Under the pieces are notes generated by a model, which was not told the DNA's origin, made no database searches, and was given only the letters and a program-made list of their open reading frames with translations. A stretch of 64,000 bases of DNA from a virus. Where the stretch lies: positions 32,001-96,000 of the IMG/VR virus record IMGVR_UViG_3300037258_001099; one strand, 5' to 3'. The translations under genes and the position numbers were made by a program. Below, one piece after another: positions 38,041 to 57,439 of the stretch (position 1 is the first letter of the stretch; every line of letters starts with the position of its first letter).

Positions 38041-38051
38041 AACAGAAAGGA

Positions 38052-39711: not shown

Positions 39712-39847
39712 TACCCTCAGAGGAGCACATTGTACTTTCTCTTGCCCTGTGAGGGGGTCACAAGCTGATCCCTTCAACAGATGCTTTCCCCTTCACGGGT
39801 AGTGCCTGCTTGCCTTGCAGGCTTTCCCTCTCGTGGAGAAAAGCTCT

Positions 39848-40885
39848 ATGTCACACACAGCACTCTCTGGAGCGATTGGCTTTGCTAAGCAATCAGCCAA
39901 AGACATCGCCAATACCTCCTACAATTACATGGCCTGCACATCCATTAGTATGGACCCCCAGCAAAATGCACAGGTACTTCCGCCTGAGATCGGGGGCGCG
40001 TACTTCCCGCGTGGGTCCTACAAAGCCTCGATCATGAGTAACGGCACGCTCGGCTTTTTGGTCCGTCCACATAGCATTGGGCATTTGCTCATGATGCTTT
40101 GCGGTGTAGATACCGTACTCACTGATACCCCAGTAGCAGGCGCAAACACCCATACCTTTACGCCGTTTCTGGTCGGCACTGGCAACGATTTGCCTTGGTA
40201 CACCACCGCTAAAGATGAGAGCCAGCTCTGGGCTGAGCAGCACTTAAACACCAGGCTTTCAAGTCTGCAACTCACCGTCCCCAAGTCAAGCATCATGACA
40301 GGGCAGGCAACGCTTGTTGCAACCACACCATCTGCTATCCTGTCATCCTCTCTTGGGGCCAAAACGTTCGACAACAATCCACCCTTCCAGGCGTGTCTGG
40401 CATCGATGAGTCTACAAGAAGAGGGTGGCTCTGGCAACATCTCGGCTAATTCTGTTCATGTGGAGCGCCTTGGCTTTACCTACAACAACAACCTCTCAAA
40501 CGATGAGTTTAGCGTTGGTAGCTTCAGTCTTGACGACATCACGCTGCAACAGAGGACGGTCACGGTTGACATGGATTTCGTGGTGAGAGATCCGGCCATC
40601 TATCAGGCGGTGTATTACAACGGTGGTGCAATCCCGCAGTCTTGGAGCCCCACAATTTATCGTGGGAATTTAAGCGTTGACGCCATTTCTACTGCCAATA
40701 TCGGCGCAACGACCACGCCGTTTTCTTGCCAGTTTAACTTCCCTGGATTGGATTTCTTGATGTTCCCAGCTCCCATGCAGGGTTCTGATGTTGTTCGCGC
40801 CACACTCTCAACACAAGTAACCCTTGGTCCGAGTGGGAGTGATCAGTTTAGCGTGGTGCTTATCAACGACGTAGCTTCGTACTAG
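39848..40885 (+). CDS. Tail tube protein
   Basis: GAIGFAKQS, NTHTFTP, FTYNNNL, FSVVLINDVASY; directly upstream of chaperones and tape measure. Confidence 0.85.
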   Translation: MSHTALSGAIGFAKQSAKDIANTSYNYMACTSISMDPQQNAQVLPPEIGGAYFPRGSYKASIMSNGTLGFLVRPHSIGHLLMMLCGVDTVLTDTPVAGANTHTFTPFLVGTGNDLPWYTTAKDESQLWAEQHLNTRLSSLQLTVPKSSIMTGQATLVATTPSAILSSSLGAKTFDNNPPFQACLASMSLQEEGGSGNISANSVHVERLGFTYNNNLSNDEFSVGSFSLDDITLQQRTVTVDMDFVVRDPAIYQAVYYNGGAIPQSWSPTIYRGNLSVDAISTANIGATTTPFSCQFNFPGLDFLMFPAPMQGSDVVRATLSTQVTLGPSGSDQFSVVLINDVASY

Positions 40886-41077: not shown

Positions 41078-41671
41078 ATGCCAAAAAGAGCGCCATTCGT
41101 CGGCGATACCAAGACCTTCGCTTCCCCAACTGATAAAGAAACCACCTTTGTCATCAGGCGGCTCTCGATCCAGCAAGTCATGATCTACCGCGATCGCAAC
41201 TCCAAGGTCCGCTACATCACTGAGGATAACGATGACAACAACCAGAAAGTGGTCACTGAGCGCGATTACCCCGCAGGCTCGATGACCGTGGATATTGCGG
41301 TGCTTGGCCTTGCCTCCTGGAACATCGCCGATCTTGCTGGCAATAACGTTCCTGTTTCTGAGGAGAACATGCTCAAGTATCTGGAGCCAGAGGAGCTGGA
41401 CTTTATCTCAGAGAAGGTTCTCGATGTCAATCCCATTCTCAGCAATCGGGGGAACCAGAAAAGCAAACCTGGAGAAAATGCTTCGCCCTCAGATGGCAGC
41501 AGTGATGGAACAGATGACACACCGACAGTACGTCAAATACTGCCAGGAGACGGAGGTGGAGAAGGAACACTACGAGACTCACAGCTATCCACATCCGTTT
41601 CTCCTCATCTGGATGGAGGCCAGACGACAAGTCAATCCCATCACGGGAGCTATGAGTTATCCCGAACCTAA
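41078..41671 (+). CDS. Tail assembly chaperone (G)
   Basis: AAGGA RBS at MPKRAP; FVIRRLS...GLASWNIAD..G..VPVSEEN...LEPEELDFI; lies between tube and tape measure. Confidence 0.75.
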   Translation: MPKRAPFVGDTKTFASPTDKETTFVIRRLSIQQVMIYRDRNSKVRYITEDNDDNNQKVVTERDYPAGSMTVDIAVLGLASWNIADLAGNNVPVSEENMLKYLEPEELDFISEKVLDVNPILSNRGNQKSKPGENASPSDGSSDGTDDTPTVRQILPGDGGGEGTLRDSQLSTSVSPHLDGGQTTSQSHHGSYELSRT

Positions 41672-41819
41672 CAAAGGCTACCTGGAGCAAGATGCCGAGC
41701 TGATGCTGGCCTTTGAGGTCCTGGAGGAGCTCTACGAAGAGCATGAAGCTGAGCAGGAACGCATGGAAGAGATAAAGAAGGCTAGATCAGCGCATTTCGG
41801 GACCCAGCAGTCGGGATAG
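41447..41819 (+). CDS. Tail chaperone T portion (probable frameshift product GT)
   Basis: Overlapping frame encodes YPEPNKGYLEQDAELMLAFEVL; GGGGG run at 41448-52. Confidence 0.65.
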
Positions 41820-41879
41820 GCCAACGTATTAAGGAAAAGTCGGTTTCACGCACATTTTTGGAAAGGACAAGAGCAGTTC

Positions 41880-44800
41880 TTGTTCCCAGAAGAAAAGGAA
41901 CGTGAAACCGTGTCAACATTCGATTACAGCGCCTGGTTTGGATTTCGTCCCAGGATTTCATCCACAGCGGAAGGGTTTGCACGCATGCCAGACTATGATC
42001 CCTCTCAGTTTGCTCCCCGTCCTGTGTGGAACCCTGCAACAGGTAAGTGGGAAGATCCAAACAAAGCAAATCGCACAATCAACCGCAGACCTACCATTGA
42101 GGCAGAGATTGCTGAGCGACAGCGCAGAGGATATTCTCTCTCTGATATTTCGCTTGCGCCACATGCTATCCCTCAAGGTGCCGCAGGTCCAGAGAAGTAT
42201 CAGTCACCAGAGGAATGGAAGAAAGCTCAGAGCACCTTCCAGTCTGTACAAGGCGCTCTTGGAGCCTCCACTGGTAAACAAGCTGCTACAGAAGCCCTAC
42301 GACGAAGTGATCTCAATAAGGCACTACGCCAGGGTCAGATAAGTACAGCAACTGCTGGCAAAGCTGCCATGATCACTGAGCGCATGAACCAAGAAGGGAA
42401 GCGTACACAGGCAGCGAACGAGGATCAGCTCAGAAATATGAGCACCCAGCCAGATGTAACGCCCTTCACCATCGTGCCACAAAAGAATCTTCCGTCACGA
42501 GCAAGCTTGCTCTCCCAGATGGAAGCTGCACAGCCCCAGGTAATAGCACTGCAACAGCAAACGCAGAAAAATGCCTCCGAGCTTATGGGCAAACAGGTAA
42601 AGATGCAGACGGTAAGTCAGTTCTTACCTGCCCTTTCACACGAGCAGCTTGGAGGGGTGCAGAGCAAGTCACAATATGTAGGGTTTCGTGGTGGTCCTGG
42701 TGGTGGCAAAAGTAAAGCGCTCATATCAGCCATCTTCAACAATCTGCTCAACCAAGGGCTCTCATCTGACGAGGCTGCTAGACTTGCCAAAAATACCATC
42801 TTTCTAAGCCAGACCAAATCAGCAGTCAGTCGCATGCGCACCAATATGGAAGGTGCAGAGCAAATGATCCCAGGCTGGGACGAGAAGGCTAGATCCGAGC
42901 AGATGATGACACTTGGCCGCTTTGCCATGAGTCTGCTTAATCGTAACCAGTCATCAGGCGGATCAATCTTACAGCAGATGGGGGCAGGTGACTACAAGCC
43001 GCTCTACCAGGGATCTGGCGAAAACATTGAAGAGGAGATGGCAAAGCGCGAGCATGAGCAGGTTTTGAAGCGCGTGCTCACCCAACATGGTTACAATACT
43101 CGGATCAATAATGTAGGCCAGCTTGCCCAAACGATCGCCGAGATCAAAGGCACAAGCAGAGAGACTTTTGAGGCAGCCTACAAACGAGGGAAGTCTCTGC
43201 AAGACCAAAATAGTCAACGGCAAGTCATCCCCTCTGAGCAGGCGCTCTACTTGTATCAGAACGAGCTGCATAGAACGAAGCAGTATGACATCAATGATGT
43301 GCCAGGAATGCTACTCAAAGCTTCGACGAAGAAGAATGTTCAGTTTCCGCGATTTGGCATGATTGCCAATGATGAGAGTCAGGACACGCCACCCATTTAT
43401 GGACAGCTCTTCCAGAAACTCCTTGGTCCATCTGGCCGACTCATTACGGCGGGCGACCCATCTCAGCAAGCGATCCGTCGCCCATGGGATATCGATCAGA
43501 CCATGAAGAGTGCTGGAGCCAAAATCCATGAGCTGAGCATCAATTTTCGTACTGGCCGCCACAATGTCTCCAGTCTCAATCCACTGCTCGCAACCCAGGC
43601 CATGGCTGATCAGCCAAAGAGCCCATTCCAGGCTGCATTCAAAGAGCATGATCAACCTATCAGAACGCATGTGGAGGAAAATTTCCCTGCCATGCACCGA
43701 GCCATGTTTGGCAACTGGATGAAAGACATGGGTCTGACTCCAGCCATGATTGCCAAAAACATGCAGTCAGGGGTCCATCCATTCTCAAGTCCAGATGCTG
43801 GGAGTCTGCTTCCAGGAGATGCACCGTTCATCTTCCAAAGAGATGAGGAAGGTCGTGGTGCATTCCTCAAAGAGATGCGGTCTACGCTGAGCAAGCACAT
43901 GGACGAGGCGATGCTTGATCGCTTCATGCAAGAGAACATCTCCAGCGAGCCACCTACCGCAAGCAATGTGATGTCTGCTCGTGCCTACACGGTTGGTCAA
44001 GCTAGGTCCCATGAGTTCCCTGAAATTCATGGCGACGTAACTCCGCAAGGTCTCTGGCCTCCAGAAGGTCATATAGGCCAGATCTATACGATGCAGTCAA
44101 GGGCTATTAATCAGCAGCATCTCTACTATTCTAAGAAGAATATGCCCAAGGGAACGCAGCATGATCTGGCTACCTCGTTCTTTGGAGGCCAAGAAGTGCC
44201 ACATGGTTGGGACCAACTTATGCAGGCAGGAACAGAAAATCTGGTAGATCAGCAAGGTATGGCTGTCGCAGATTTACCAGAGGCGATGCAGTATGCCTAT
44301 AACAGCCCACATGCCATGAACCTGGGGACTTCTCCAGAGCGGCCAACAGAAGACCCAGAGATGGTGAAGCAGTTTGTTGAGGAAACACTCTTTGCCAACA
44401 AGTTCTATAGTCCACCAGTTGACTCTGGATCTGGGCTGCTCCAGGGCAGCAAAGATGATCAATTTGCCGCTGACATGCGCACTTACGGTTTCAACGCCGA
44501 GATGCTCTCAGGGCAAACCAAGCGTTCTGTGATCTCACAGTCCAAGATGGAGATGGCAGCGCGTGCAGCCCAAGATATGATCATGAATGGCCCTGGTGTG
44601 GTCTCGCGGGGAGCAGCAACCTTCAACAGCGAAGGTGTCTGGCAAACCAAGCGTATGGGCAGGTCAGAGATCGAATCCGTTCCATCGCCCAAAGAGTTCA
44701 TGGATCGTATCCATCAGATGGCGGGACCTATTCCAGCACGTCTCATGAAGGACGATATCGAGCGAGAAGCTTCCTCAGAGTTTCCTGAGATCGATAATAT

Positions 44801-47800
44801 CCAGATGAAGCCATGGGCAGGAAAGGAGCAATCTCAAGAGGCTGGTGACACGACGCAGGTCCGTCAGTGGATGGGACACGCACTTGCTATTCCAGGGTTC
44901 CGCAATGTTCCAGAGATCATGGGCAGACTGAATGATCTACTCACTCATCCCAAGGTTCTCCAGTCGATCACGGGGCCACTTGGGAAGCTTGCTAAAAGTG
45001 ATCCAAAGCTTGCTCAACTTCAGAAGCGGATCAATCTTGGTCGGCTCGATGGTCACGAAGCTGAGAAGATCAAGAACAGGATTGCCAGACTTATAGGACT
45101 GGGTGCAAAAATCACACAGACTCAGCAAGTCCAGCTTTCTGCACTGCAATCGAAGATGAAGAAGGTTGGAGGAGAGCCTCTTCACCGGATCATCTCGCGG
45201 GTAGTGACACCAACACTCACAGGTACCAACAAACCTAATCCGCTCTATCATGCAGGGTTTGCAGATCTACTTCATGGGGCCGCAGCAAAACAGCTTCCCT
45301 GGCAGCATCTTGATCCAGACTTTGTGGGCTCGCTGGGAGGTAGGGCACGACAATTTGAAAGAGAGGGAGACACATCCAAGCGCCGTTTCTGGGGTGAGGC
45401 GGCAGGAAAATTTGAAGCATTTAGTTCCCAGGTGCATCCAGATGGATCGCCGCTCACAAAAGAGATGCTTGCCCACGCAGCTCCTCACGAGCGAGCACTT
45501 TTAGAGCGGATCTTCGAGAGCAAGCATGGTGGAGATATCCTGCCCTATAACCACCCAGATGTCGAGAGCCGCGTAAGCCAGTTTACCTATCAGCGAGGCC
45601 TCGTCAATCGTGGCATGGTCTCTCCCGAAAACATGGCAGCAATGAAGCTTTCTCGTGCTAACTCCAGGCGTGCTCCTGGTGAGACGGAGTTTGCCAACCT
45701 CTACATGGCGTTGCAAGGTGGTCTTTCGGAAGGAAGCGGCTCTGGTATCGAAGACCCAATGAACACACTTGCACGGGGAGGAGGCAGATTTGCAAGTCTT
45801 GGCGCTGGAACGCGACTTGACTCTATGATCCAGAGACTTACGGAACTCTCTGATCCTGCTGGTCGTGTGCTCACTTCAGCCGAACGTGCGGGGTTTGCTG
45901 AGCAACTTGGGCAGGCACAGTATGTGAAGTCTGAGCTCTCCAGTCCTACCAACTGGCGTGATTGGGCGCATACCCTGCGGGCGGCAAGCCTTGCCTCAAC
46001 TGGGAAAAACCTCCATGATCCAAAGCCCTTGGAGGAAGGAAAACCCAACGATCCAGTGAGAGAGCTTTTCCGCCACCGCGACCAACATGTTAAAAATGCT
46101 AGGTCTCTAGAAGGGCTGACAGGTCTCATCACTCCGCTCAAAGAGGCAACAGCACATTTACAAAAGACAGGATCACTGCGGCGGTCTCATGTGGACGAGA
46201 TCCTGAGAGCGTTTGGCTACGATCCGGCGGACAAGAATCTTACCGCGCTCCGAAAGCTAGAGGAGAAGAAAGGCTTTAGTAGCCGAGGCGGCCAAGATCC
46301 AGATCTACCAATGGCAAAATTGATCGGGCAGTTCCCAGACCAGATGAAAGATATGCGGGAGCAGCTTACCCGTGTGCCGATTATCCAGGGATCGCAGCAC
46401 TACACTTATATGGGAGGCGAGCCTGGATATGCCGATATCAAAAAAGCACAGCAGGGTATTCCCTCTGGGATCATGGGAACGCTGCATCCGCTTCCTAAAA
46501 CAGATGAGACTGGGCCTGAAGAAGAATTTGGTCTCTCCAAAAATGTCCAGTTCCACATGAGTCGGGACATGTTCTCCAAATCCGATCTGGGAGTATTCAA
46601 CCCAGAGAAGGCCAAGAGATTACCAGAGCATGTTGCAAATATGGATTATGCGCCACTCATGCAATTTGAAGGAATGCACCAGGGCAGCCACGTAAGCTTT
46701 CCAGTTCACCCAGAGCAACTTGCTCTTGCGGACACCAGTGGCCTCGAACAGGAAAAGGGTATCCAGGATCTCTTCAAACGTGCTAGGTGGACAGGTCTCA
46801 GATGGAAGGAGCAAGATCAAAATAAAAAGCAGATAGAGGTATTGCGTCGGTCAGCAGACGCTAAGCATAGAAAGGAGCATCCCCTCTTTACGCCAAGGCA
46901 GCTTGCAAACCCTCGGGGATATGCTAGTTCCTTTGGAGTTGATCCACGGACACTCCCGCCAGCGTACAGATCACACATAGGAGGGCAAATTAACTCTCCA
47001 AGCAAGGTCCTGGCGGCAGCGCAGGTAGCCCAGCACAGCCAGGGTCAGATGGCACGAGGGCTGGTGGGAATGCAGCAGCCAGTGCCAGAGCCCATGCCGT
47101 CTTATCGTGGATACCAGCTTGGTGGAGATTTAAACGAAGCGGCCATTGACTCGATCATTCGCAGCCAGCAGAAGAAGGAGCTAGAGGCAAATACGGCAGA
47201 GACACCTGAGTTTGGGCCAGTTGATCCAAATTTGCAGCCGATGCTTCCTGGCTTTGGTGGAGGCGGGGGAAATCTTCCCCCAAGGCCACCATCGGTTCCT
47301 ACACCAGAACCAGAAAACGATCCCAGTAGAATGTTCTCGGCTTTGTCTTCTCCAGAATTGGAGAGGGCACAGCCTTTTCTTGCGCATCCCAGATTCAACC
47401 AGCTCTACAAAACTTTCGAGACAGGACGGCTCTTTGGAAGACAAGTAACGTGGCAAGGGCATCTTGAAGATGAGCACGCCTTTAATCTGCGTCATCCAGA
47501 GCTCCATAAGAGTGATCTTGAGCTAACGAGCGGCCTCTTGGGGAAATCAGTTCCTCCGCCTCCACCTGATGCATCTACCATGGCTCCACGGCAAAGACAA
47601 GAATCATCCGGCTTGCGCCAAAGAATGATGGTTCAACATGCATCTGGTCTGGCACAGGCAAGAGATAGGAAAAACGATCCGCTGCTCGCAACGATTGGGC
47701 AGCATATTCCTGCCCAGGTGCCACTAGCACCAAGCCAAGGGGGAATTCCACCCCACGACATGGCTCAACTTCTTACACATCTACGCAGCGGGAAACAGTC

Positions 47801-50800
47801 CTCTGATATCGCCCTGGCAAAGCAATACGGCAAAGCGCCGATGCAATACCTAGGTAGTATTTCCGGTAATCAGAAACCATTACCGGAAATTGCAGCAGTA
47901 GCTCCTGGCGCGAGAGGGTCCTGGGATGAAGATTCGTATGGCTTCCCAGCAGAAGCTCCTCCTGATGACCTTTCTATGGGTGACGAGGAAATGTTTGAGT
48001 TTCACCAAGCTCTGGGTCAGATGGATGCGTTCGAGTCACCTGCAAAAAAAGCTACTCCAGCCCCTGTAAGTCCAACGCCTATTCCTGCTCCTGCCTCAGC
48101 GGGGCCAGCGTACCAACTCTCTCACTTGCCAAAGCTGATGCGATCACAAAGGCGCACCCTTATTAGAGGAGGCCAGATTCACCCCTTTGAGGAAGGAAAG
48201 CCTGGCATTGGTGTTGGAGGAACCAATCCTGAGCAACGTGATGTGTTAAATGCTCCTGATCGCCGCATGATTGTGCAAGGTGGGCCTGGCACGGGCAAAA
48301 CTGAGACCATGATCATGAAGATCGCGGACCTGATTGCTAAAGGCCATGTCGACCCAAGCCGTATCATGGCTTTCTCTGGTATGCACTCAGGTGTCTCTGA
48401 GCTCAACACCAGGATGAGCAAATTCTTGCAGCCATTACTTCCCCATGGAGAAGAGCACAAGCTTCCTGCGGCTCGTACACTGCACTCTCTAGCCCATCAG
48501 GTCCTCTTCCAAAGAGGCAAGCCAAGTCCAGCACTGGGTGGCATTGGACTTGGTTGGATTAAGGGGGTCATGGGTAACCCAAGCGAGGAAGAGCTCGCAA
48601 GGCAAACTCCAGAGACCCAGGAAAAGCTCCGCGACCAGCAACGTCAATTCTTGCACGGGGCTATTAAGCAAAACTTCCCGAAAGCCAAATGGCTTCCAAG
48701 CACACCAGACGAGCTTGATCGTGTCATGGGGGATATCAAGAAATACAAGTCTAGTCGCACTGGAGAGGACCCACTTTACGATAAGATGATAAAAAAAGGC
48801 CTTGGGGATATTTCTCATGGCAAAAAGTTCACCCATGCCGGAGCCCTTGCTGTCTATGAGCAATCTGTGGCGCAGACAGGCAACATTGATTTTGAGGATC
48901 TGATCACCTACGGCAGTTCTGCTCTTGGCCGTCTCGGAAGCGAAGCTATCCCGCAAGGTGTTGAGGGAACGCAGCTCCTCGCCTATGACGAGGCGCAAGA
49001 CGCCAACCGAGAGAACCTGGGATTTGTCTCCAATCTCGTGAGTGCTCTTGGACCAGAAACACATGCAGTTGTCGGTCTTGATCCACTCCAGTCGCTTTTT
49101 CAGGGAGCTGGAAGCCTGCCTGGAGAGCATATTGTGCCAGCCATTCAGCAGATGCTGGGTGGAGCAGGACACATTCAGCTTCGCGGAAACTATCGCAGCT
49201 CCATGAAGGATGTGGCGCTCTCCAATTCGATCTTACAAATGCATGCCATGAGCGGAAAGAAAGGACTTTCCCCACTTCAGGTCCCCTATTCACAGAAGCT
49301 TGGATCAGAGCCAAGCTTCATGCTTAGAAAATCCCAGCCTGAGCTCTATAAGAAGATGTTTTCCTCTATGCTTGCCCATGCTGGTGTCTCTCCAAAAACC
49401 ATGCGAGAAAATATTTTGGCTGGAGAGCATCCCTTTAAAGGAGTGGACTGGAACCAGCCAGACAAGATTCGGCCAGGGGAAATGCCTGCACTTTTTATGA
49501 TGAAGGCGCAGCGCTCACTCTTTGAGCATATTGCCCCATCAATCATTCAGGGGCTTGATCCAGCGGGCAAGATTGATCCTGAGATGGCAAAGAAAGCCTT
49601 TGGGCAGATGTATCGGCCAGGTCTGCCTGGCAAAGCCGCAAGCGATGAAGAACAGACTATATTTGCCAATAAGCTCGCATTCCGAGGACTCACCGTGGGC
49701 CAGAGTAGAGGACTCTCCTTTGAGAACCCACATATGGATGCCTCCCCCGTAGGGGAATGGCGGCGTCCTGGGGAGAAGGCTGAGGAGTCGTACTTGCACA
49801 ATCTGGGAGTCATGGTTTCTCGCACAAAAGAGGGTGGACGCAGCTTTATTGGGGCGGCAAGCACCCCGTTTTCTGGCGATCAGATGAAGGATTTTGTCCA
49901 GACACAAGGAAAGCACTACCGCGAGACCTCTCCAGAGTCACATAATCGTGGATCGGTATGGTATGGGGAACCTGGCTCTGATCCGCTATCTGTCCATCCC
50001 CGCAATGAGTTCGATACCCACGAAGGTCAACCAGTAGCACACTACTTTGGCGAGATTATGGGACTCCAGAAGAAGCAGGTAGATGACTGGAAAGCGATGA
50101 AGAATTCCCCTGCCCAAGCGGCTGTTCCAGCACAACTTGTCTCGCAAGAAGCAGTTGCCGCATCACCCCCTAGAAAGCAAGATCTTGCCAAGACAGCTCT
50201 GTCTGACCTTCAATCACGTGCGCCATCTGGCAGGAGTGCTCAAATAGAGTCGCTGCTAGCAAAGACGGTTGCATCGCCCCACGCGTCAGATCCTAGCCAG
50301 CACGCAATGGTCGGTCAACTCCACACAGAGTTTGCCAAACTTGGTGGCTCAGCTTCCTGGTCAGATTTCATGAAAGCAAAAGCACCAGAGATTGAGAATC
50401 TAGCAGGACCACAAAGCCCTGTGACCAAGCTTGCTCAAACAATGGCCGCATCCCCTGATAAATATGCGCCTGGATCTACGGCGATATCAGCCAAAGATGT
50501 CACCGTCAATGCTGCCGCCAATTCCAAAATCACCGTTGCAGGGGGCGCACAGGTTGATGTGATCCGAGCAAGCACGCCTCCTCTCGCCTCTATGGCAGCA
50601 GTAGGTAAAGGCGCATCGCCCGTGAGCTCCACCATTGCCAAAAATACACCAATAGAGGACTTACCTCTCTCGGGAGCAACTCCTGTCACGCGTATTAGCC
50701 GCAATCCTTTTGCAAGCACTGGAGGCATTCCGTCTACGTCAACAACGACAGTGGCTCAGGTCACAGGTGGTGCTCCTTCTGGGACAAGTGTTGGCGCAAG

Positions 50801-53800
50801 CACAGTAGGTGGGCCATCATCTAAAGGTGGCATTGGCTCGTTGGTTATCCACCCAGGAGCATCTGTTGGCGCTATCAACGTCTACGGAGGTGGACCAACT
50901 ACGGGCGGAGGCGGAGATGGTGGGGACAAAGAGCCGCCAAAGACCACGCTTGCGAAGTTCTCCGACGGGCTCACGAATACTGGTCGTACCTTCGCTCGTA
51001 TTGGGCAGGAGATGCAGTACTTCGGGCAGCTCTTCAATGATGTTACGCAGAAGGCACTTGAGCAAGGATCAGACTATAGACTTGCCTCTGGGACATTTAA
51101 AGCATCTGGCGCAACCGCTGACAGGGGCTTCTACGACTTTGCCAATCCTGCGAGCGGCATCTCTCAGATGCAGACGAATAGCCTGCCGATGTTCTCCAAG
51201 ACCGATATTGCACAAAATCTCCAAAATGTAGCAGGCATGGTAGGAGGCCAGCTTCCACCTTCTGGGACGTCAACGAGTATCATGCAGCTTGCAGCACTAA
51301 CTGGGGCAGATCCGACACAGCTTACCTCTCAGATAGGCTACATCAGTGGCTCGATGGGACAAGGGATGACCGCTACACCTGCAATCGAAGGATACACGGG
51401 GAGCCTCTATCACGGCCAGGTAAACGCAACCAACCTTGCTCCAACGCTCCAAGCGGTCTCCTCGGCGCTTCCCAGCATGCAAGGGCTCACATTTGGACAA
51501 GGCAACAATCTAGGAGCCTTCTACGGCCTCATGAATGCGGCTCAAGGCGGAGGCATGACAGCGGCCAATATGCCCGATGTCTCTGACCTTACGAATTCTC
51601 TGGCTCAAGTAGGCACTGCGCCTAATCTCAATCAGCAGGCAGCACTCAATCAGCTTTTCCCAGGACAGCTCACAGGCGGTGCCCAGCTTGCCCAGTTCCA
51701 ACAGCAACAAGTGGGAATGAGTGAGCAGGCAGGAGAGCTTGGTCTTCAGCAGCAGTTCAATGTGCCAGGCCTTCAGATGCAGATTGGCAATGCCAACGTC
51801 GCGATGCAGCAGGCTAATGTTGATCTCGGGCAGATCCAACAACAGCAAGGCTATGCCCAACTTGGCCTCTCTCAGCAAGAGCTTGGATCAAGCCAGGCGA
51901 ACCTTGATTACCAGAGAGACCAGCATGACTATCAGCAAGCCAGCCTGAACTATCAGAAGCAGCAGCTTAATTATAGTGAGGCACAGCTTGGCTATTCCCA
52001 GCAGCAATTTCAATATAGCCAGGCTCAGTACAGCCAAGCGCAACTCCAGCAGCAATATGCGCAAGCGAGCTTTACCCAGCAGCAATATGTCCAGACACAG
52101 GAGTATGGCCCCATTGGTGCCGACACTGGACGGCAGAGCTACTTCGATTTCATGCGTAATCAGCAAGCGGCAGGATACAACCCGCTCTCCGCTGAAACTG
52201 GGACCCAGTTCAAGCCGTCAGCGCCTCAAGGTATCCAGAACATGCAGTTCTACGCAGGGATTGAGAACCAGCGTCAGATGAGCATCCTCTCGCGGTCACC
52301 GCTGCTCTCAGATGCTGCATTTCAGCAACAGCAAAAATACTTAAACGAGCAAGAGGCCTTCTATAAGGAGCAGCTAGACTTAACAAACGAGCAGCGTACC
52401 TTTGACGTGACCTGGGGACAGAAGATGCTCGACTCCCAGCAGAAACTCCTCGACCTACAAGGGCCACTGCTCACTACACAGAAGAAGCTCCTGGATATGC
52501 AGCAGCCAATGCTCGATACCCAAAAGAGCCTGCTGAACCAACAGCAAGGGCTTCTCAACACTGAGGGGCATCTCCTCGATCTCCAACAAGGCATTCTGGA
52601 TACCCAAAAAGGCATGCTTGTCTATACCCAGGAAGCCCTTGATCAGCAGGGCAAAATCCTGGGTATCCAGCAGACCCAGGTGGGCCTTACAGCGCAGATG
52701 AATGATTACCAAAATGCTCAGCTCAAGCTTCAACAAGCGTATCTGCCAGCCCAGCTTGGGGCTCTTCTCGCAGTCCAGACAGCCATGGAGCAGCAAATTA
52801 ATGGACAAGGCCCTGTCAATGGCACAAATCCCACGCCACAGCAGATCATTAAGCAGCTCTCTCTTATCCAGAATCCAACCCAGCAACAGGATATTATGCG
52901 CAACCTGGGACTGCCTCCCAATCAGGTAAATACCCTGCAAACTATCCTCAATGGTATGAAGAAGGCTGGCGGCTATGATGCAGCCATGAGTGGGGTTTCC
53001 CCTGCCGACAAAAGCATCCAGGCGCAGGTGAACAACCTCATCAAGTCAGGAGCCTTTGCTGGACAAACAAATCAAGCTGCACAGTCTGACACCTCGCTCC
53101 TGCTTGGTGGCACAGCAGCGCAGTGGACAAAGTTCACGCAGGCTTTTGATACGGCCAACAAATATGCAGAGCAAACAGCAAACGCTGCATCCTCCATCAA
53201 CGACTATATCAAGGGCTGGGGAACCTTCTTTTCTATGGCTGGTCCTGCCATTGTTGGCATCGGCATGCTGCTCCAGGGTCTTGGGCTTGGCGGACAGGCA
53301 CTGAACTTCTTTACATCAGGAGGTGCCTCTGCTGCTGCTGGCGGGGCTGCAAGCTGGGTAACACAAACAGCAGCTCCAGCAGTCGCCTCGGCGGCATCAA
53401 CAACGGCAAGCGCAATCTCGTTAGCCCTTACCACTGCTGCCCCTATCATCATTCCTCTGGTTATTGCTGCTGCCGGAACGGCAATTATAACATTCGCATT
53501 AAAGTGGCTTGGGGATCAGGCATCAAATATTAATCAGCAGAACTTTAACAACCCAAAGAATGCAACCTCAAATCTTCCGTCGTGGCTTCAGTGGCTTCCT
53601 GGCAAAACAGCTTCTCCACAAGTTGTTGCTTCTGCGCAATCGAAGCAAGATGCGTACCGAGCCTCTCACGGCGGAAAAGACATGCCGATGCCTGATGAGA
53701 GTCCGCTCGCCAAGGGAACGCTTCTTGGGGATGCCTGGAGCGGTATTAAGACAGGCGTAGGCAACGCCTGGAATTGGCTGACAGGTGGAAACAACAAAGC

Positions 53801-55646
53801 TGAAGCATCTCCCGCTCCAGCAAATCCCAAAGGACATGACTTTGGGGCACAACCAAATGCACCAGTGATACCCACGCCACCATCGGTATCACCATGGAGT
53901 ACGGCATACAAAGCTATTGTGGGGGTATTTGCGCCGCTAGGCAAAACTTTCCAGGGCTATTGGAACGCTGTAGCTAGCGGATCTGACTGGTTAAGAACAT
54001 ATATCAAAGGTAAAATAAGCGATTCATGGAATGCTATCGTCACTAAGTTCTCTCCTCTAGGTAAGTTTTTTAGCAATCTTTGGGTTGATGTACAAAATGT
54101 ATGGAAATCAGCTCCTGGATGGCTACACGATAGATTTCAAGATGCATGGAACAGGGTAACAGGGGTATGGTCCCCTCTCGGTAAGATTTTCCAGGGCTTT
54201 TGGAAAGACGTACAGAATGTATTTGTAGGAGCACCCAAGTGGTTCCAAGGTGAATGGCAAATTGCGTGGAATAATGTAACAAATATATGGTCTCCAATCG
54301 GTAAAACATTCCAGGGATACTGGAATGATATCATGGGAGGAGTTAATTGGCTCAGAACGAATATATCTAATACATGGAATAGTATAAAGGTAGATACTGA
54401 AAATATATTTCACAATATGATAAACGGGATTATCGATCATTTAAATGATGGAATATCGGGCGTAGAGGGATTTATTAACTTTTTTGGGCAAGGACTCGAT
54501 AAAATTGCTGGGGCCTTCCATGTCAGTGATCCTATCCCACAGAATAATCACCTCGGTCGCATTCCCCACTATGCTCTTGGTACCGACTCCCATCCTGGCG
54601 GCCCTATGGTTGTAGGTGAAAAAGGTCCCGAACTGCTTTTTGCTCCAAAGGGCTCTACAGTTGTTCCGGCTGATCTGACCGAAGCGCTGCTCTCAATGTT
54701 TAAAGGCAAGGTTCCAGGCTATGCTGGCGGCGTTGGTGATATCACAGCGTCTATCATCGATTGGGTAACAGGTGGCGCTAAATCGTTATTGGACAACGTT
54801 GTGAGCACTCTGCATATCACGGCTCCAAATCTCGGACCAATGAAGGACATTTCATCTGGTGTCTTCAACTCATTGGAGAAGTGGGCGCTAAGTTGGATCA
54901 GTTCGATTTTGCCATCTTTCGGTGGCAGTGGCAGCCAAGGGAGCCCAGGAACACTGACAGGTGTTCCTGGCAATGTTGCTTCATGGATACAATCCGCTAT
55001 GGCGCTCACGCACGTGCCTGCAAGCTGGCTAGCAGACCTAGAAATTATCGCTATGCACGAATCGGGCGGCAATCCGAATTCTATTAACCTTTGGGACAGC
55101 AATGCCCTAGCTGGTCATCCTTCACAAGGCCTGTTTCAGACGATACCTGGCACTTTCGCCGCCCATGCTCTTCCAGGTCACGGAAATATATTAAACCCGA
55201 TAGACAATGCTGCTTCAGCTATTGGGTACATAGAGGGTAGATATGGCGATGTGTTCCATGTGCCTGGAATAGTCTCAATGAGTCATGGTGGCCCTTATGT
55301 CGGGTATTCTGGAGGCGGCATACTCTCTGAACCTGTTGTTGGCACGGGACTGAGTACTGGGACACGATATAGCTTTGCAGAGGCTGCGCCAGAGGCAATT
55401 GTGCCACTCTCAAAGCTTTCCATTGCGCTCAAGTCTCTTCCCAAGAGCGGGAGTAGTGCCGTCTCTACCCAGCCAACAACAATATCTTCAAATTCTGGAC
55501 AAAGCATTCAAATAAAGAGCCTGATTGGGACCGCAACCATTAACATAAACACCAATGGAACAAAAATTGCTGACACCGAGAAAGATGAGCTGATGAGTCA
55601 GATCATGGATCTCTTTAGTGATGCGCTCAAGCAGTTGAACACCTAA
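41880..55646 (+). CDS. Giant tape measure protein with two UvrD-like SF1 helicase modules, Gln-rich coiled coil and C-terminal lytic transglycosylase
   Basis: 4588 aa after the chaperones; helicase motifs at about 42630-44125 and 48220-49860; Trp-periodic repeats near 53900-54400; PHYALGT...VGEKGPEL; HESGGNPNSINLWDSNA..GHPSQGLFQ. Confidence 0.9.
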   Translation: MFPEEKERETVSTFDYSAWFGFRPRISSTAEGFARMPDYDPSQFAPRPVWNPATGKWEDPNKANRTINRRPTIEAEIAERQRRGYSLSDISLAPHAIPQGAAGPEKYQSPEEWKKAQSTFQSVQGALGASTGKQAATEALRRSDLNKALRQGQISTATAGKAAMITERMNQEGKRTQAANEDQLRNMSTQPDVTPFTIVPQKNLPSRASLLSQMEAAQPQVIALQQQTQKNASELMGKQVKMQTVSQFLPALSHEQLGGVQSKSQYVGFRGGPGGGKSKALISAIFNNLLNQGLSSDEAARLAKNTIFLSQTKSAVSRMRTNMEGAEQMIPGWDEKARSEQMMTLGRFAMSLLNRNQSSGGSILQQMGAGDYKPLYQGSGENIEEEMAKREHEQVLKRVLTQHGYNTRINNVGQLAQTIAEIKGTSRETFEAAYKRGKSLQDQNSQRQVIPSEQALYLYQNELHRTKQYDINDVPGMLLKASTKKNVQFPRFGMIANDESQDTPPIYGQLFQKLLGPSGRLITAGDPSQQAIRRPWDIDQTMKSAGAKIHELSINFRTGRHNVSSLNPLLATQAMADQPKSPFQAAFKEHDQPIRTHVEENFPAMHRAMFGNWMKDMGLTPAMIAKNMQSGVHPFSSPDAGSLLPGDAPFIFQRDEEGRGAFLKEMRSTLSKHMDEAMLDRFMQENISSEPPTASNVMSARAYTVGQARSHEFPEIHGDVTPQGLWPPEGHIGQIYTMQSRAINQQHLYYSKKNMPKGTQHDLATSFFGGQEVPHGWDQLMQAGTENLVDQQGMAVADLPEAMQYAYNSPHAMNLGTSPERPTEDPEMVKQFVEETLFANKFYSPPVDSGSGLLQGSKDDQFAADMRTYGFNAEMLSGQTKRSVISQSKMEMAARAAQDMIMNGPGVVSRGAATFNSEGVWQTKRMGRSEIESVPSPKEFMDRIHQMAGPIPARLMKDDIEREASSEFPEIDNIQMKPWAGKEQSQEAGDTTQVRQWMGHALAIPGFRNVPEIMGRLNDLLTHPKVLQSITGPLGKLAKSDPKLAQLQKRINLGRLDGHEAEKIKNRIARLIGLGAKITQTQQVQLSALQSKMKKVGGEPLHRIISRVVTPTLTGTNKPNPLYHAGFADLLHGAAAKQLPWQHLDPDFVGSLGGRARQFEREGDTSKRRFWGEAAGKFEAFSSQVHPDGSPLTKEMLAHAAPHERALLERIFESKHGGDILPYNHPDVESRVSQFTYQRGLVNRGMVSPENMAAMKLSRANSRRAPGETEFANLYMALQGGLSEGSGSGIEDPMNTLARGGGRFASLGAGTRLDSMIQRLTELSDPAGRVLTSAERAGFAEQLGQAQYVKSELSSPTNWRDWAHTLRAASLASTGKNLHDPKPLEEGKPNDPVRELFRHRDQHVKNARSLEGLTGLITPLKEATAHLQKTGSLRRSHVDEILRAFGYDPADKNLTALRKLEEKKGFSSRGGQDPDLPMAKLIGQFPDQMKDMREQLTRVPIIQGSQHYTYMGGEPGYADIKKAQQGIPSGIMGTLHPLPKTDETGPEEEFGLSKNVQFHMSRDMFSKSDLGVFNPEKAKRLPEHVANMDYAPLMQFEGMHQGSHVSFPVHPEQLALADTSGLEQEKGIQDLFKRARWTGLRWKEQDQNKKQIEVLRRSADAKHRKEHPLFTPRQLANPRGYASSFGVDPRTLPPAYRSHIGGQINSPSKVLAAAQVAQHSQGQMARGLVGMQQPVPEPMPSYRGYQLGGDLNEAAIDSIIRSQQKKELEANTAETPEFGPVDPNLQPMLPGFGGGGGNLPPRPPSVPTPEPENDPSRMFSALSSPELERAQPFLAHPRFNQLYKTFETGRLFGRQVTWQGHLEDEHAFNLRHPELHKSDLELTSGLLGKSVPPPPPDASTMAPRQRQESSGLRQRMMVQHASGLAQARDRKNDPLLATIGQHIPAQVPLAPSQGGIPPHDMAQLLTHLRSGKQSSDIALAKQYGKAPMQYLGSISGNQKPLPEIAAVAPGARGSWDEDSYGFPAEAPPDDLSMGDEEMFEFHQALGQMDAFESPAKKATPAPVSPTPIPAPASAGPAYQLSHLPKLMRSQRRTLIRGGQIHPFEEGKPGIGVGGTNPEQRDVLNAPDRRMIVQGGPGTGKTETMIMKIADLIAKGHVDPSRIMAFSGMHSGVSELNTRMSKFLQPLLPHGEEHKLPAARTLHSLAHQVLFQRGKPSPALGGIGLGWIKGVMGNPSEEELARQTPETQEKLRDQQRQFLHGAIKQNFPKAKWLPSTPDELDRVMGDIKKYKSSRTGEDPLYDKMIKKGLGDISHGKKFTHAGALAVYEQSVAQTGNIDFEDLITYGSSALGRLGSEAIPQGVEGTQLLAYDEAQDANRENLGFVSNLVSALGPETHAVVGLDPLQSLFQGAGSLPGEHIVPAIQQMLGGAGHIQLRGNYRSSMKDVALSNSILQMHAMSGKKGLSPLQVPYSQKLGSEPSFMLRKSQPELYKKMFSSMLAHAGVSPKTMRENILAGEHPFKGVDWNQPDKIRPGEMPALFMMKAQRSLFEHIAPSIIQGLDPAGKIDPEMAKKAFGQMYRPGLPGKAASDEEQTIFANKLAFRGLTVGQSRGLSFENPHMDASPVGEWRRPGEKAEESYLHNLGVMVSRTKEGGRSFIGAASTPFSGDQMKDFVQTQGKHYRETSPESHNRGSVWYGEPGSDPLSVHPRNEFDTHEGQPVAHYFGEIMGLQKKQVDDWKAMKNSPAQAAVPAQLVSQEAVAASPPRKQDLAKTALSDLQSRAPSGRSAQIESLLAKTVASPHASDPSQHAMVGQLHTEFAKLGGSASWSDFMKAKAPEIENLAGPQSPVTKLAQTMAASPDKYAPGSTAISAKDVTVNAAANSKITVAGGAQVDVIRASTPPLASMAAVGKGASPVSSTIAKNTPIEDLPLSGATPVTRISRNPFASTGGIPSTSTTTVAQVTGGAPSGTSVGASTVGGPSSKGGIGSLVIHPGASVGAINVYGGGPTTGGGGDGGDKEPPKTTLAKFSDGLTNTGRTFARIGQEMQYFGQLFNDVTQKALEQGSDYRLASGTFKASGATADRGFYDFANPASGISQMQTNSLPMFSKTDIAQNLQNVAGMVGGQLPPSGTSTSIMQLAALTGADPTQLTSQIGYISGSMGQGMTATPAIEGYTGSLYHGQVNATNLAPTLQAVSSALPSMQGLTFGQGNNLGAFYGLMNAAQGGGMTAANMPDVSDLTNSLAQVGTAPNLNQQAALNQLFPGQLTGGAQLAQFQQQQVGMSEQAGELGLQQQFNVPGLQMQIGNANVAMQQANVDLGQIQQQQGYAQLGLSQQELGSSQANLDYQRDQHDYQQASLNYQKQQLNYSEAQLGYSQQQFQYSQAQYSQAQLQQQYAQASFTQQQYVQTQEYGPIGADTGRQSYFDFMRNQQAAGYNPLSAETGTQFKPSAPQGIQNMQFYAGIENQRQMSILSRSPLLSDAAFQQQQKYLNEQEAFYKEQLDLTNEQRTFDVTWGQKMLDSQQKLLDLQGPLLTTQKKLLDMQQPMLDTQKSLLNQQQGLLNTEGHLLDLQQGILDTQKGMLVYTQEALDQQGKILGIQQTQVGLTAQMNDYQNAQLKLQQAYLPAQLGALLAVQTAMEQQINGQGPVNGTNPTPQQIIKQLSLIQNPTQQQDIMRNLGLPPNQVNTLQTILNGMKKAGGYDAAMSGVSPADKSIQAQVNNLIKSGAFAGQTNQAAQSDTSLLLGGTAAQWTKFTQAFDTANKYAEQTANAASSINDYIKGWGTFFSMAGPAIVGIGMLLQGLGLGGQALNFFTSGGASAAAGGAASWVTQTAAPAVASAASTTASAISLALTTAAPIIIPLVIAAAGTAIITFALKWLGDQASNINQQNFNNPKNATSNLPSWLQWLPGKTASPQVVASAQSKQDAYRASHGGKDMPMPDESPLAKGTLLGDAWSGIKTGVGNAWNWLTGGNNKAEASPAPANPKGHDFGAQPNAPVIPTPPSVSPWSTAYKAIVGVFAPLGKTFQGYWNAVASGSDWLRTYIKGKISDSWNAIVTKFSPLGKFFSNLWVDVQNVWKSAPGWLHDRFQDAWNRVTGVWSPLGKIFQGFWKDVQNVFVGAPKWFQGEWQIAWNNVTNIWSPIGKTFQGYWNDIMGGVNWLRTNISNTWNSIKVDTENIFHNMINGIIDHLNDGISGVEGFINFFGQGLDKIAGAFHVSDPIPQNNHLGRIPHYALGTDSHPGGPMVVGEKGPELLFAPKGSTVVPADLTEALLSMFKGKVPGYAGGVGDITASIIDWVTGGAKSLLDNVVSTLHITAPNLGPMKDISSGVFNSLEKWALSWISSILPSFGGSGSQGSPGTLTGVPGNVASWIQSAMALTHVPASWLADLEIIAMHESGGNPNSINLWDSNALAGHPSQGLFQTIPGTFAAHALPGHGNILNPIDNAASAIGYIEGRYGDVFHVPGIVSMSHGGPYVGYSGGGILSEPVVGTGLSTGTRYSFAEAAPEAIVPLSKLSIALKSLPKSGSSAVSTQPTTISSNSGQSIQIKSLIGTATININTNGTKIADTEKDELMSQIMDLFSDALKQLNT
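47859..47890. repeat. Second copy of the 12-8-12 palindrome, inside the tape measure gene
   Basis: ATTTCCGGTAAT-CAGAAACC-ATTACCGGAAAT. Confidence 0.9.
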
Positions 55647-56170
55647 TGGGAAATGCAAGTGGCTTTGGCATTGGAACATACCAGCCTCTCTCTGGGGTAA
55701 CAACAACCATCGGATCAGGCTTTCCAAATGCTCCATTTCAGCTCGTCCATCCGTATGCAGGTACCTACGGTGGCAACTATGGGTACGTGATCGACACGAC
55801 GATCAAGTCACCAAACGAGGTCCAGTGGACTCCTGCGCCAGAAATCGGCATTGATGGGATTGGCAACTCTGTCATTCGTGGATTTCCACAGATTGAGTGG
55901 GACTACCCGATTATGCGGCCAGATCATTGGTACAAGCTAAAATTTTTGAGAAATCAGTCAGCTAAAGTGCCACCTGCATATCAGTACATTGTGTTGCTCC
56001 AGTACCCCGACGTTTTTGGATCAGGGGTGCTCGCACAACAACTAGCACGATTTGAGCCCATCACCTTTTCAAGCCGAACATCTGCGATCTTCCAATCGGT
56101 CGTCTTGAAATTCACGTACGTGGGGCAAGCACAACTGCTTTCTGGAACACCTATTTCTATCATTGCATAA
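55646..56170 (+). CDS. Distal tail (Dit-like) protein
   Basis: Coupled to the tape measure stop (TAATG); position and size. Confidence 0.65.
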   Translation: MGNASGFGIGTYQPLSGVTTTIGSGFPNAPFQLVHPYAGTYGGNYGYVIDTTIKSPNEVQWTPAPEIGIDGIGNSVIRGFPQIEWDYPIMRPDHWYKLKFLRNQSAKVPPAYQYIVLLQYPDVFGSGVLAQQLARFEPITFSSRTSAIFQSVVLKFTYVGQAQLLSGTPISIIA

Positions 56171-56181
56171 GGAGGCGACCT

Positions 56182-57243
56182 ATGACTTGCCAGGATGTTA
56201 CAAAGGTTACAGGACAACATCTGATCTTTCTTGGGGTGGGTGCCGCGTCCTGGTCTCTTGCGCAGTTTAGCCAAGCAGGAGCCTTTGCCAAAGCGCATGG
56301 GGTAGATAGCCTTCTTCTCAAAAGCGCAGATGGAACGAACAGATGGTACGGGGGGATGGACGGGTACCGCCAAAGGAGAGATGCGATCAAAGCTCAAGGC
56401 GTTGGTGTTGTCCCCTATACCTATAGCTACGGCAACAAATTTGGGGCTATTGATGGAGAAATTGCGATCCTCAAGAGCTTTATGGCAGAGGACGGCGTGG
56501 TATGCATGGATGCTGAGGCCGAGTGGAATGGGCAAGTTGGCTGGGCTTCCCACCTGTGTTCTGCAATGACTGGCACTCCTGGCATCTTCCTAGTCTCCAC
56601 ATGGGCAGATCCATCGATCCAAAACTGGATGGGTGTGCTCCAAGCAATGAACCCGTGTGTGGATGCCTACATGCCACAGCAGTACAGTAATTTCCTGGCA
56701 CCACTTTGGACGCAGTTTGGAGCAACGGGAGCAGCCTGTATCCAACCAACCGTGGATCTGAGCCAGGAAGCAGGGCCTAACGATCCTGTCGCTATTGCAC
56801 GGGCCGCAAGCGCACAGGGGCATACAGCACTTTCTGTCTGGCATCATGATCTGGCCGTTGCCAACCCTGCACTTCTTGATGCGATCCTGGCCGCATTCCC
56901 AAAAATAGAGGAGGACATCCCTATGGTTATTAATCTCACAACGCCCCTGGTTGGCAACTATTACGAATCTACTGGCAATGATGCTGTATGGAAGTGCAAG
57001 CAAACAGGCTTTCTGGTAGGACACGGCATCCTAGCCTTCTACCAGAAATTTGGGGGAGATGCCCTTTGTGGGCTCACCTACCTCGGGATAGCGATGAGTA
57101 ATGAAATTGCAATAACAGGACATCCTGGCAGTGTGTACCAAAAATTTGAGCGAGGGATTGCGGTTTATAATCCAGACCACAGCTTCGACTTTCCCCCAGG
57201 AGCGGGTCCTGTATACATGGCCCATACTGACGCAAAGTTTTAG
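56182..57243 (+). CDS. Endolysin (TIM-barrel glycoside-hydrolase-like plus C-terminal binding domain)
   Basis: LLKSADG, CMDAEAEW, MPQQY; C-terminal TGFLVGHGILAFYQKFGG...LG...SNE...QKFERG; AAGGAGG RBS. Confidence 0.75.
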   Translation: MTCQDVTKVTGQHLIFLGVGAASWSLAQFSQAGAFAKAHGVDSLLLKSADGTNRWYGGMDGYRQRRDAIKAQGVGVVPYTYSYGNKFGAIDGEIAILKSFMAEDGVVCMDAEAEWNGQVGWASHLCSAMTGTPGIFLVSTWADPSIQNWMGVLQAMNPCVDAYMPQQYSNFLAPLWTQFGATGAACIQPTVDLSQEAGPNDPVAIARAASAQGHTALSVWHHDLAVANPALLDAILAAFPKIEEDIPMVINLTTPLVGNYYESTGNDAVWKCKQTGFLVGHGILAFYQKFGGDALCGLTYLGIAMSNEIAITGHPGSVYQKFERGIAVYNPDHSFDFPPGAGPVYMAHTDAKF

Positions 57244-57253
57244 GGGGACGACT

Positions 57254-57415
57254 ATGATGCACTTCTTGCAAAATTGCATTCAGCCTAGCGCTGTACTCAT
57301 GCTTTTTATATCGGTGGTCTGCCTGGTTGGATATGGGTATTCAGGATATAAAGCAAATAATGGTCTTCTCTGGCTGCTCTGGCTTTTTATTGGTATTCTA
57401 GCCCTAGTATCCTAG
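57254..57415 (+). CDS. Small two-TM protein, holin candidate
   Basis: Two hydrophobic segments directly after the endolysin. Confidence 0.5.
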   Translation: MMHFLQNCIQPSAVLMLFISVVCLVGYGYSGYKANNGLLWLLWLFIGILALVS

Positions 57416-57439
57416 TTCATGATTGTAGGATCGTAAAGT

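Follow-up and report, generated by a model that had tools for sequence, protein, structure and literature searches.

In a 64,000-nucleotide stretch of virus DNA (the window; bases 32001-96000 of a 136,990-bp IMG/VR virus contig with a completeness estimate of 91%) we found a giant gene that joins two UvrD-like helicase modules of superfamily 1 (SF1) to a tape measure protein. We have hardly any doubt that this gene is continuous, that its architecture is conserved, that its second module has a UvrD fold, that the catalytic residues are intact, that the C-terminal third is a tape measure protein and that the chain is free of cysteine. The overall reading that we favour, with about as much confidence as doubt, is that an ancestor enlarged its tape measure gene by an N-terminal extension of ~2700 amino acids (aa) with two paralogous 2B-less UvrD-like modules and that the whole protein is built into the tail and brings its motors to the entering DNA. 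We lean, by analogy, towards delivery of the helicase part into the host, and given such delivery an action on the incoming DNA would, again by analogy, be quite probable. The injection of an enzyme fused to a tape measure protein is not a new idea, gp96 of Thermus phage P23-45 being an established precedent; the helicase version is a new variant. A first-pass annotation of this DNA knew of no described tape measure protein with tandem helicases, and a full-text search of the literature returned no tape measure-helicase fusion either; the supplements of PMC5512222 and PMC10770324 may list more fusions.

Continuity of the giant gene and its relatives

The gene and its parts are listed below by position in the window, strand and supporting evidence; aa numbering is counted from the TTG at 41880 (codon 1 of the 4588-codon open reading frame, ORF), with M36 at the ATG at 41985, and local hidden Markov models (HMMs) and AlphaFold2 (AF2) models are named where they were used.

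41880..55646, + strand: giant ORF, 4588 codons from TTG 41880, stop-free
41985..42554, + strand: conserved N-terminal region (aa 36-225), local HMM 'Nterm', no assigned fold
42555..44249, + strand: helicase module 1 (aa 226-790), UvrD-like SF1A; PF00580, hhalign, motifs
44250..47279, + strand: conserved middle region (aa 791-1800); family-wide conservation
47280..48146, + strand: Pro-rich variable linker 1 (aa 1801-2089); low identity, many gaps, Pro 11.5-12.5%
48147..50084, + strand: helicase module 2 (aa 2090-2735), UvrD-like SF1A without 2B; PF00580, phmmer, hhalign, AF2, Foldseek, VIA-align
50085..50939, + strand: variable linker 2 (aa 2736-3020); rich in Ala, Ser, Pro and Gly
50940..53219, + strand: tape measure core including the Gln-rich coiled part (aa 3021-3780); phrog_58, phrog_1535
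53220..53759, + strand: hydrophobic membrane-type segment or segments (aa 3781-3960); hydropathy
53760..54479, + strand: Trp-periodic repeats with a period of ~40 aa (aa 3961-4200); regular expression, Trp content
54480..55646, + strand: C-terminal tape measure part with an SLT lytic transglycosylase; PF01464, phrog_167

The first-pass annotation had read one uninterrupted ORF of 4588 aa on the + strand at 41880-55646, and the frame is indeed without a stop. Translation probably starts at ATG 41985 (M36) and would then yield a product of 4553 aa; this start is favoured because a public gene call (P0002) gives 4553 aa and the homologues have a consensus that opens with MDYDP. The ATG is preceded by GGAAGGG. 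A Logan contig of 22,744 bp, produced by a second assembler, spans positions 41000-56500 of the window with 0 differences and no joint; it possibly stems from the same sample as the IMG/VR record and therefore tests the assembly, not the biology. The sole public run that contains the stretch carries the source label soil metagenome. Megablast of the giant ORF against 50,697 phage records gave no match, and the best identity of the TerL to that of any cultured phage is ~24-29%. Tandem Repeats Finder reported only one trivial 20-bp row across the giant ORF, the Trp repeats being visible at the protein level only.

Relatives of the giant protein were found in several ways. When only proteins of similar length were searched, three further giants came up whose Pfam content agrees with that of the window protein: P0003 (4332 aa), P0004 (4525 aa) and P0005 (4467 aa), with 27-42% identity when the best local BLASTP alignment is taken. 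An exhaustive HMMER search with the middle region (aa 790-1800) against 1.84 billion representatives returned 8 proteins, family members only, and added P0007 (4093 aa), P0009 (3891 aa) and P0010 (4428 aa) as well as three fragments. A scan of metagenome contigs contributed L010, an uninterrupted ORF of 4352 codons with the same domain order, which is the complete form of the fragment P0008 (99.7% identical). There are thus eight full-length members (P0001, P0003, P0004, P0005, P0007, P0009, P0010 and L010; 3891-4588 aa), two of which, the window ORF and L010, are available as DNA, both with an open frame. We read the domain order in the members with local profiles built from a four-way alignment: the order Nterm-hel1-mid-hel2-tape measure core-C-terminus is common to all full-length members, and the 'Nterm' HMM matches every member possessing an N-terminus. 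Conservation is collinear along the entire chain, the only variable parts being the two Pro-rich linkers (~aa 1800-2090 and 2736-3020). The helicase-helicase-tape measure order that the first-pass annotation had suggested looking for in other phages is therefore found in eight full-length proteins. Scanning IMG/VR for patterns taken from module 2 and from the family alignment gave no relative, and a word-based search for shorter forms of aa 200-2800 found none among the 8000 candidates scored, where split forms could escape.

A helicase gene could have been fused to a tape measure gene by an assembly chimera or a missed stop, a possibility that the first-pass annotation had itself raised. The DNA comes from a metagenome assembly and the sole run holding the stretch may be its own source, which leaves some room for such an artefact. 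However, the architecture is common to eight full-length proteins from different assemblies and sources, the second assembler produced the same sequence without a joint, and both the absence of cysteine (see below) and the conservation continue through the domain junctions. We regard the probability of a chimera as practically negligible and, given the eight family members and the agreement of the second assembler, reject it as far as sequence data allow.

Helicase modules and tape measure part

PF00580 (UvrD-helicase; cut-off 23 bits) matches the giant protein at aa 254-529 (55 bits, E 1.3e-14) and at aa 2116-2407 (82.6 bits, E 5e-23). In a six-frame scan of the whole contig these two sites were the only ones found, and PF00580 is matched by 9/9 family members. 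The two ordered SF1 motif sets reported in the first-pass annotation (~42630-44125 and ~48220-49860) are both present as placed. The conserved motifs Q, I, Ia, II, III, IV and VI occur with the catalytic Lys, the Asp-Glu pair and two Arg, and the GK[ST] of Walker A, the DE of motif II, the Arg of motif IV and the Ser-Arg of motif VI are kept in all 16 modules (16/16), at an overall identity of only 23-56%. Read from the sequences, this is the pattern of working ATPases, not of spacer sequence.

The SF1 fold, which the first-pass annotation had wanted checked, is predicted clearly for module 2 and weakly for module 1. In phmmer searches of the Protein Data Bank (PDB), module 2 found PcrA, UvrD and AdnB at ~E 1e-6 and module 1 alone had 0 matches; the family profile, with module 1, also reaches UvrD, Rep, RecB and HelD. 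With hhalign, the part from the Q motif to motif IV aligned to 18 of 20 standalone UvrD-like proteins (those >700 aa), the probability being 99.5% in the case of module 1 (E 1.7e-22) and 99.9% in that of module 2 (E 1.3e-31). The AF2 model of module 2, made from a 9-row alignment, has a pLDDT of 79 and a pTM of 0.73; a module 1 row added to that alignment fell on other columns and contributed nothing, and in another alignment, which combined the family with standalone UvrD-like proteins, motifs V and VI were out of register, so that it was not used for folding. Foldseek matched this model to UvrD of Deinococcus radiodurans, Rep, PcrA, Escherichia coli UvrD, Mycobacterium tuberculosis UvrD1, AdnB, RecB, AddA and HelD, with UvrD as the best match (E 3.6e-20), and VIA-align superposed it on E. 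coli UvrD (3lfu) with a Z of 25.6 and an rmsd of 4.4 A over 463/633 residues (residues 3-641). A tblastn search with aa 1-2900 against the 50,697 phage records gave one weak helicase match, in Bacillus phage S4-1 (24% identity).

The modules share the 1A-1B-2A fold and the motifs Q and I-VI with UvrD/PcrA/Rep, AdnB, RecB and AddA. They differ from this group in that they have neither 2B nor a match to UvrD_C, that their identity to solved structures is 13-21%, that no nuclease domain was found here and that both motors reside in one chain with the tape measure protein. On these sequence criteria they are UvrD-like SF1A motors without 2B, not orthologues of UvrD, PcrA or Rep. In AdnAB and AddAB two UvrD-like motors work as a pair, and the tandem modules recall such pairs. 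The two modules are 23% identical to each other over 519 aa (E 8e-13) and have in common an idiosyncratic insert after motif IV. They are old paralogues, and the duplication is older than the family: whichever member is taken, either module scores far better with its own profile than with that of the other module. The nearest standalone proteins found are helicase-nuclease proteins (22-35% identity); the two standalone relatives listed with an organism name belong to Candidatus Vogelbacteria and Wolfebacteria.

The first-pass annotation had taken ~3000 N-terminal residues to be enzyme; this holds for ~1200 aa of helicase, whereas ~1000 conserved residues (aa 791-1800) match nothing known. This middle region had no match in Pfam (9 members), in PDB profiles or in the ESM Atlas, where queries with aa 790-1800 and aa 1351-1800 returned no usable match. 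Its best-conserved stretch is aa 1401-1600, and invariant columns are numerous at aa 1400-1620 (e.g. TRVP, GG..GY and FPV.P.QL).

The C-terminal part shows all the features that the first-pass annotation had placed after the helicases, i.e. the Gln-rich coil, the Trp-periodic repeats and a transglycosylase domain. The Gln content of aa 3201-3600 is 20-26%, and four members share 68-88% identity over aa 3401-3500. A hydropathy peak (Kyte-Doolittle 2.48) lies at aa 3856-3874, and homologues show one or two peaks in the same region. Trp reaches 8.5% of aa 4001-4200, where the expression SP[LI]GK.F..W matches at aa 4058, 4098 and 4138, with a spacing of 40 aa, and a variant fourth copy is seen by eye near aa 4018. 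The SLT domain (PF01464) lies at aa 4387-4457 (window 55038-55250; 31.6 bits, cut-off 21.3) and is replaced by an M23 peptidase in 5/9 family members; swaps of the wall-cutting domain are usual among tape measure proteins.

Several matches connect this part directly to tape measure proteins. The tape measure family phrog_167 matches within aa 3645-4566 (E 7.7e-72), and phrog_4070, phrog_5448, phrog_1535 and phrog_58 match as well. In a tblastn search, aa 3021-4588 matched 956 phage records, mostly of siphophages of Gram-positive hosts, the best being the annotated tape measure protein of Aeribacillus phage AP45 (31%, E 1e-44); among the 25 of these 956 matches that were listed, all but a few were annotated as tape measure or minor tail protein. 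Over its C-terminal ~500 aa the giant protein is homologous to AP45 gp55 (1251 aa; 31%) and Bacillus phage PM1 gp72 (1456 aa; 26.5%), which are likewise free of cysteine and differ in having no helicase extension. On this evidence the last ~1570 aa are a genuine tape measure protein. Tape measure profiles matched none of the other ORFs of the 137-kb contig, which makes the giant gene, as judged by these profiles, the only tape-measure-like gene of the contig.

Absence of cysteine and the fate of the helicase part

The giant ORF has 0 in-frame TGT or TGC codons among 4589 codons, with 124 and 241 in the other two frames. The rest of the crude ORF set of the phage contains 632 Cys in 35,458 aa (1.78%), from which ~81 would be predicted for the giant protein. 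Seven of the eight full-length proteins have 0 Cys, L010 being counted from its first Met, which the single Cys of its ORF precedes; P0007 has 2. Among the public entries 0 Cys was counted in P0001, P0003, P0004, P0005, P0006, P0008, P0009 and P0010. Standalone UvrD-like proteins (n=20) contain 112 Cys in 18,845 aa (0.59%), each having at least 2. The three tape measure proteins that were checked, those of AP45 (1251 aa) and PM1 (1456 aa) and gp96 of P23-45 (5002 aa), also have 0 Cys (loci L008:4126-7881, L009:3619-7989 and L007:13288-28296, in this order), and their neighbouring genes have 0.19-0.46%. With these three comparators in hand, tape measure proteins may be cysteine-free as a rule. 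The helicase part is cysteine-free like the tape measure proteins and therefore obeys a tape measure constraint. Such an absence would be expected, as indirect evidence, if the helicase part travels the route of the tape measure protein, with storage in the virion and passage through the envelope before folding. It is a possible sequence signature for finding other ejected proteins that are stored unfolded and delivered by the virion. We also observed 0 Cys in the protein of the 174-aa gene (55646-56170, +) directly after the giant gene.

The closest known system is gp96 of P23-45, a tape measure protein that is fused to an N-terminal RNA polymerase and is found at full size in virions; its authors propose that the polymerase acts at the pore of the tape measure protein during DNA entry (PMC10770324). 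The same fusion is present in P74-26, G20c and TSP4 (Chaban et al. 2024, PMC10770324), and the tail of P74-26 measures nearly 1 micrometre (PMC10034513), which suggests, by analogy, that the enzyme part also counts as tape. Like the giant protein, gp96 is very large (5002 aa), has an N-terminal enzyme acting on nucleic acid and C-terminal membrane and cell-wall-cutting domains, and has 0 Cys. It differs in carrying a two-barrel RNA polymerase instead of SF1 helicases and in its experimental support; BLASTP between the two proteins gave no match at 1e-3.

The helicase part (~2700 aa) could also act in the producing cell, or be cut off or made in a different amount, so that an ordinary tape measure protein of ~1500 aa enters the tail. 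The linker at aa 2736-3020 is variable, looks disordered and would be a plausible cutting zone, folded helicases do not fit the lumen of a tail, and tape measure proteins are often fragmented on gels (80alpha, bioRxiv 10.1101/2024.12.10.627806). Nevertheless, none of the 9 members has a recognisable protease domain, and the word-based (k-mer) search mentioned above, of limited sensitivity, gave no split or shorter forms. A crude scan for a Shine-Dalgarno sequence with a start codon inside the ORF gave 6 places and none around aa 2750-3100, which is weak evidence against internal initiation there. Furthermore, a purely cytoplasmic enzyme would not need to be cysteine-free, as the helicase part is, and gp96 of P23-45 is full-size in virions (PMC10770324). 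We consider such a separate fate of the helicase part unlikely.

The reading that we favour has several points against it as well. The giant protein is known here from sequence and models alone, and the phage is uncultured. The AF2 model of module 1 is poor (pLDDT 53.7, 4-row alignment), its top Foldseek matches to PcrA, UvrD and Rep being weak (E 2.5e-5). UvrD_C (PF13361) has no match anywhere in the genome at E <= 10, and UvrD_C_2 is touched by 1/9 members (E 0.0017); when the C-terminal halves are merged into one profile, motifs IV, V and VI still fall on the 2A domain of UvrD-like proteins (E 9.6e-5, in a single comparison). The 2B is absent, as seen from a gap of ~200 aa at its place in the profile alignment and from ~170 UvrD residues that stay unaligned in the structure comparison, and motif V varies among the 16 modules; real unwinding activity is for these two reasons uncertain. 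The NCBIfam models of PcrA, UvrD and Rep score 28-45 bits versus equivalog cut-offs of 911-1168. A folded helicase of ~70 kDa should be too big for the narrow lumen of the tube, so that the cargo would need unfolded storage and perhaps a very long tail. Finally, the comparison of cysteine content with ordinary and enzyme-fused tape measure proteins covers three proteins only, the assignments of neighbouring genes as tube, chaperone, Dit and Tal are weak or absent, and the genes upstream of the L010 gene are not recognisable as tail genes.

With UvrD_C undetected, 2B missing and motif V variable, the modules could also be decayed enzymes that are retained only because they lengthen the chain, as a spacer in a very long tail; P23-45-like phages pair giant tape measure proteins with very long tails (PMC10770324, PMC10034513). 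This is at odds with the catalytic residues, which are invariant in 16/16 modules at 23-56% overall identity, and with module 2, which in the model folds confidently as a globular UvrD-like protein; a spacer is expected to drift to the coiled, repeat-rich type of the real tape region. The invariant residues and the confident fold of module 2 lead us to reject the decayed spacer, which we hold to be very unlikely.

Neighbouring genes and a possible role in DNA entry

The genes flanking the giant gene are the following.

39815..40885, + strand: 356-aa tail protein gene, upstream; only match phrog_290 'minor tail protein' (E 4.6e-20)
40898-41671 and 41295-41819, + strand: two overlapping ORFs, candidate tail assembly chaperone pair, read from sequence only
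55646..59563, + strand: three downstream genes of 174, 353 and 707 aa, presumed tail-tip proteins

The first-pass annotation had seen a tube gene and chaperones before the giant gene and a Dit-like gene after it; the tube and the Dit-like gene could not be confirmed: the 356-aa gene matches phrog_290 only, and searches of Pfam, PHROGs and NCBIfam with 38812-39711, 40898-41671, 41295-41819, 55646-56170 and 56182-57243 gave nothing. A possible +1 slip site, CAG AAA AGC (~41456-41464), would join the two overlapping ORFs, the second of which (41295-41819) reads like a real protein from ~41448; the chaperone pair may perhaps be made by a +1 rather than the usual -1 frameshift. Downstream, the start of the 174-aa gene overlaps the stop of the giant ORF, and in L010, too, the genes after the giant one include homologues of the 174-aa and 707-aa genes (tblastn, 50% and 62% identity). 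The 707-aa protein has a weak PKD match of 22 bits, below the cut-off. Terminase, portal and major head genes are found further upstream of the giant gene. Phage_sheath_1 had no match in the genome at E <= 1, a hint of a non-contractile tail.

The surroundings also bear on the so-called polyvalent proteins, giant proteins with DNA enzymes and cell-wall hydrolases that are predicted to enter with the DNA (Iyer et al. 2017, PMC5512222). The giant protein resembles them as a giant multidomain chain with helicases and a lytic domain, and could be a head-packaged or otherwise ejected protein of this type with borrowed tape-measure-like C-terminal domains, not measuring a tail. Polyvalent proteins join helicases to lysozyme or peptidase domains and their injection with DNA has been proposed (PMC5512222), and the neighbours of the giant gene are not firmly nameable as tube or chaperones. 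On the other hand, ~1500 aa are collinear with tape measure families, well beyond the lytic domain, in the only tape-measure-like gene of a contig estimated to be 91% complete; the genome gave no match to a sheath gene, and phages with long tails depend on a tape measure protein; and the gene lies between tail genes and conserved tail-tip-like downstream genes. Unlike in polyvalent proteins, no processing metallopeptidase of the MPTase type was found by Pfam in the 9 family members, in which ~1000 aa have no assignment. The main text of PMC5512222 does not contain the term 'tape measure' and gives UvrD-like helicases only in a few actinomycete plasmid proteins. We regard a polyvalent protein as quite unlikely here. 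DarB of phage P1 is another large protein that virions carry and inject along with the DNA; it contains a helicase domain and shields the DNA from restriction. It differs in its packaging in the head and in combining a methyltransferase with an SF2 helicase, and it does not serve as a tape measure protein.

Several other features were observed in the genome and in the contig of L010. The head genes and the tail genes are separated by, among others, a 653-aa ORF (29608-31569, +) that matches neither Pfam nor PHROGs; its last ~450 residues consist of ~20 copies of a ~19-aa unit centred on SR(L/F)xQY. The block of structural genes is interrupted at 33867-38279, first by an HNH/endonuclease VII-like gene (33867-34901) and then by a group of genes on the minus strand, one of them ParB-like (36318-37508). 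The family phrog_506 'transposase' matches at 7890-9215 (+) of the window and at C1:101330-102556 (-) of the genome (E 7.9e-40 and 1.5e-111), which indicates insertion-sequence-type genes within the phage genome. In L010, the region before the giant gene encodes a DNA methyltransferase and contains a Mom-like modification gene (L010:684-4525), homologues of window 70795-72808 follow the tail-tip genes (L010:23197-32672), and the ribonucleotide reductase block that is found in the window at 59787-62897 is missing. For replication the phage also has a primase-helicase of its own as well as an SF2 helicase, so that the motors of the tape measure protein are not needed as replicative helicase.

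If the helicase part is delivered as we favour, the entire polypeptide would be built into the tail, like gp96 of P23-45. In 80alpha three copies of the tape measure protein have their C-termini at the tip protein, and their N-termini are attached to the tail completion protein, which closes off the DNA end (bioRxiv 10.1101/2024.12.10.627806); by analogy, the N-terminal region of the giant protein would be its head-proximal end in the virion. At infection the C-terminal end would exit first, the SLT domain cutting the cell wall and the hydrophobic part forming a channel, and the N-terminal end, which would adjoin the DNA end in the virion, would enter last and refold in the cytoplasm. Helicase 1, ~200 residues from the N-terminus, would follow next to the leading DNA end, and the two motors, tethered to the channel, could work on the genome as it comes in, the likeliest mode being ATP-driven translocation that draws the DNA inwards and removes host proteins bound to it. 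The first-pass annotation had likewise thought of a cargo delivered with the genome, with DNA uptake, removal of defence proteins and priming of replication as candidate jobs. UvrD, Rep and PcrA displace DNA-bound proteins. Removal of 2B reportedly activates the Rep monomer, and the absence of 2B may likewise make the motors of the tape measure protein constitutively active; 2B-less helicases could for this reason be of interest to enzymologists. In its full form, the tape measure protein would be a DNA-entry machine in which ~4550 residues, the helicases among them, are held in a non-native, cysteine-free state in a tail of ~0.7 micrometre and the motors, refolded at the cytoplasmic opening of the channel and stationary there, reel in the 137-kb genome and strip proteins from it, a speculative picture that we hold possible and rather doubtful. 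If true, it would parallel, with helicases, the transcription-coupled entry that has been proposed for P23-45.

Late genome entry and early DNA survival in long-tailed phages are largely unsolved. A tape measure family with two intact motors would be a concrete candidate for a role in DNA entry and early DNA protection. Taken together with the P23-45 RNA polymerase, it suggests that tape measure proteins may serve generally as a vehicle for 'first-in' enzymes.

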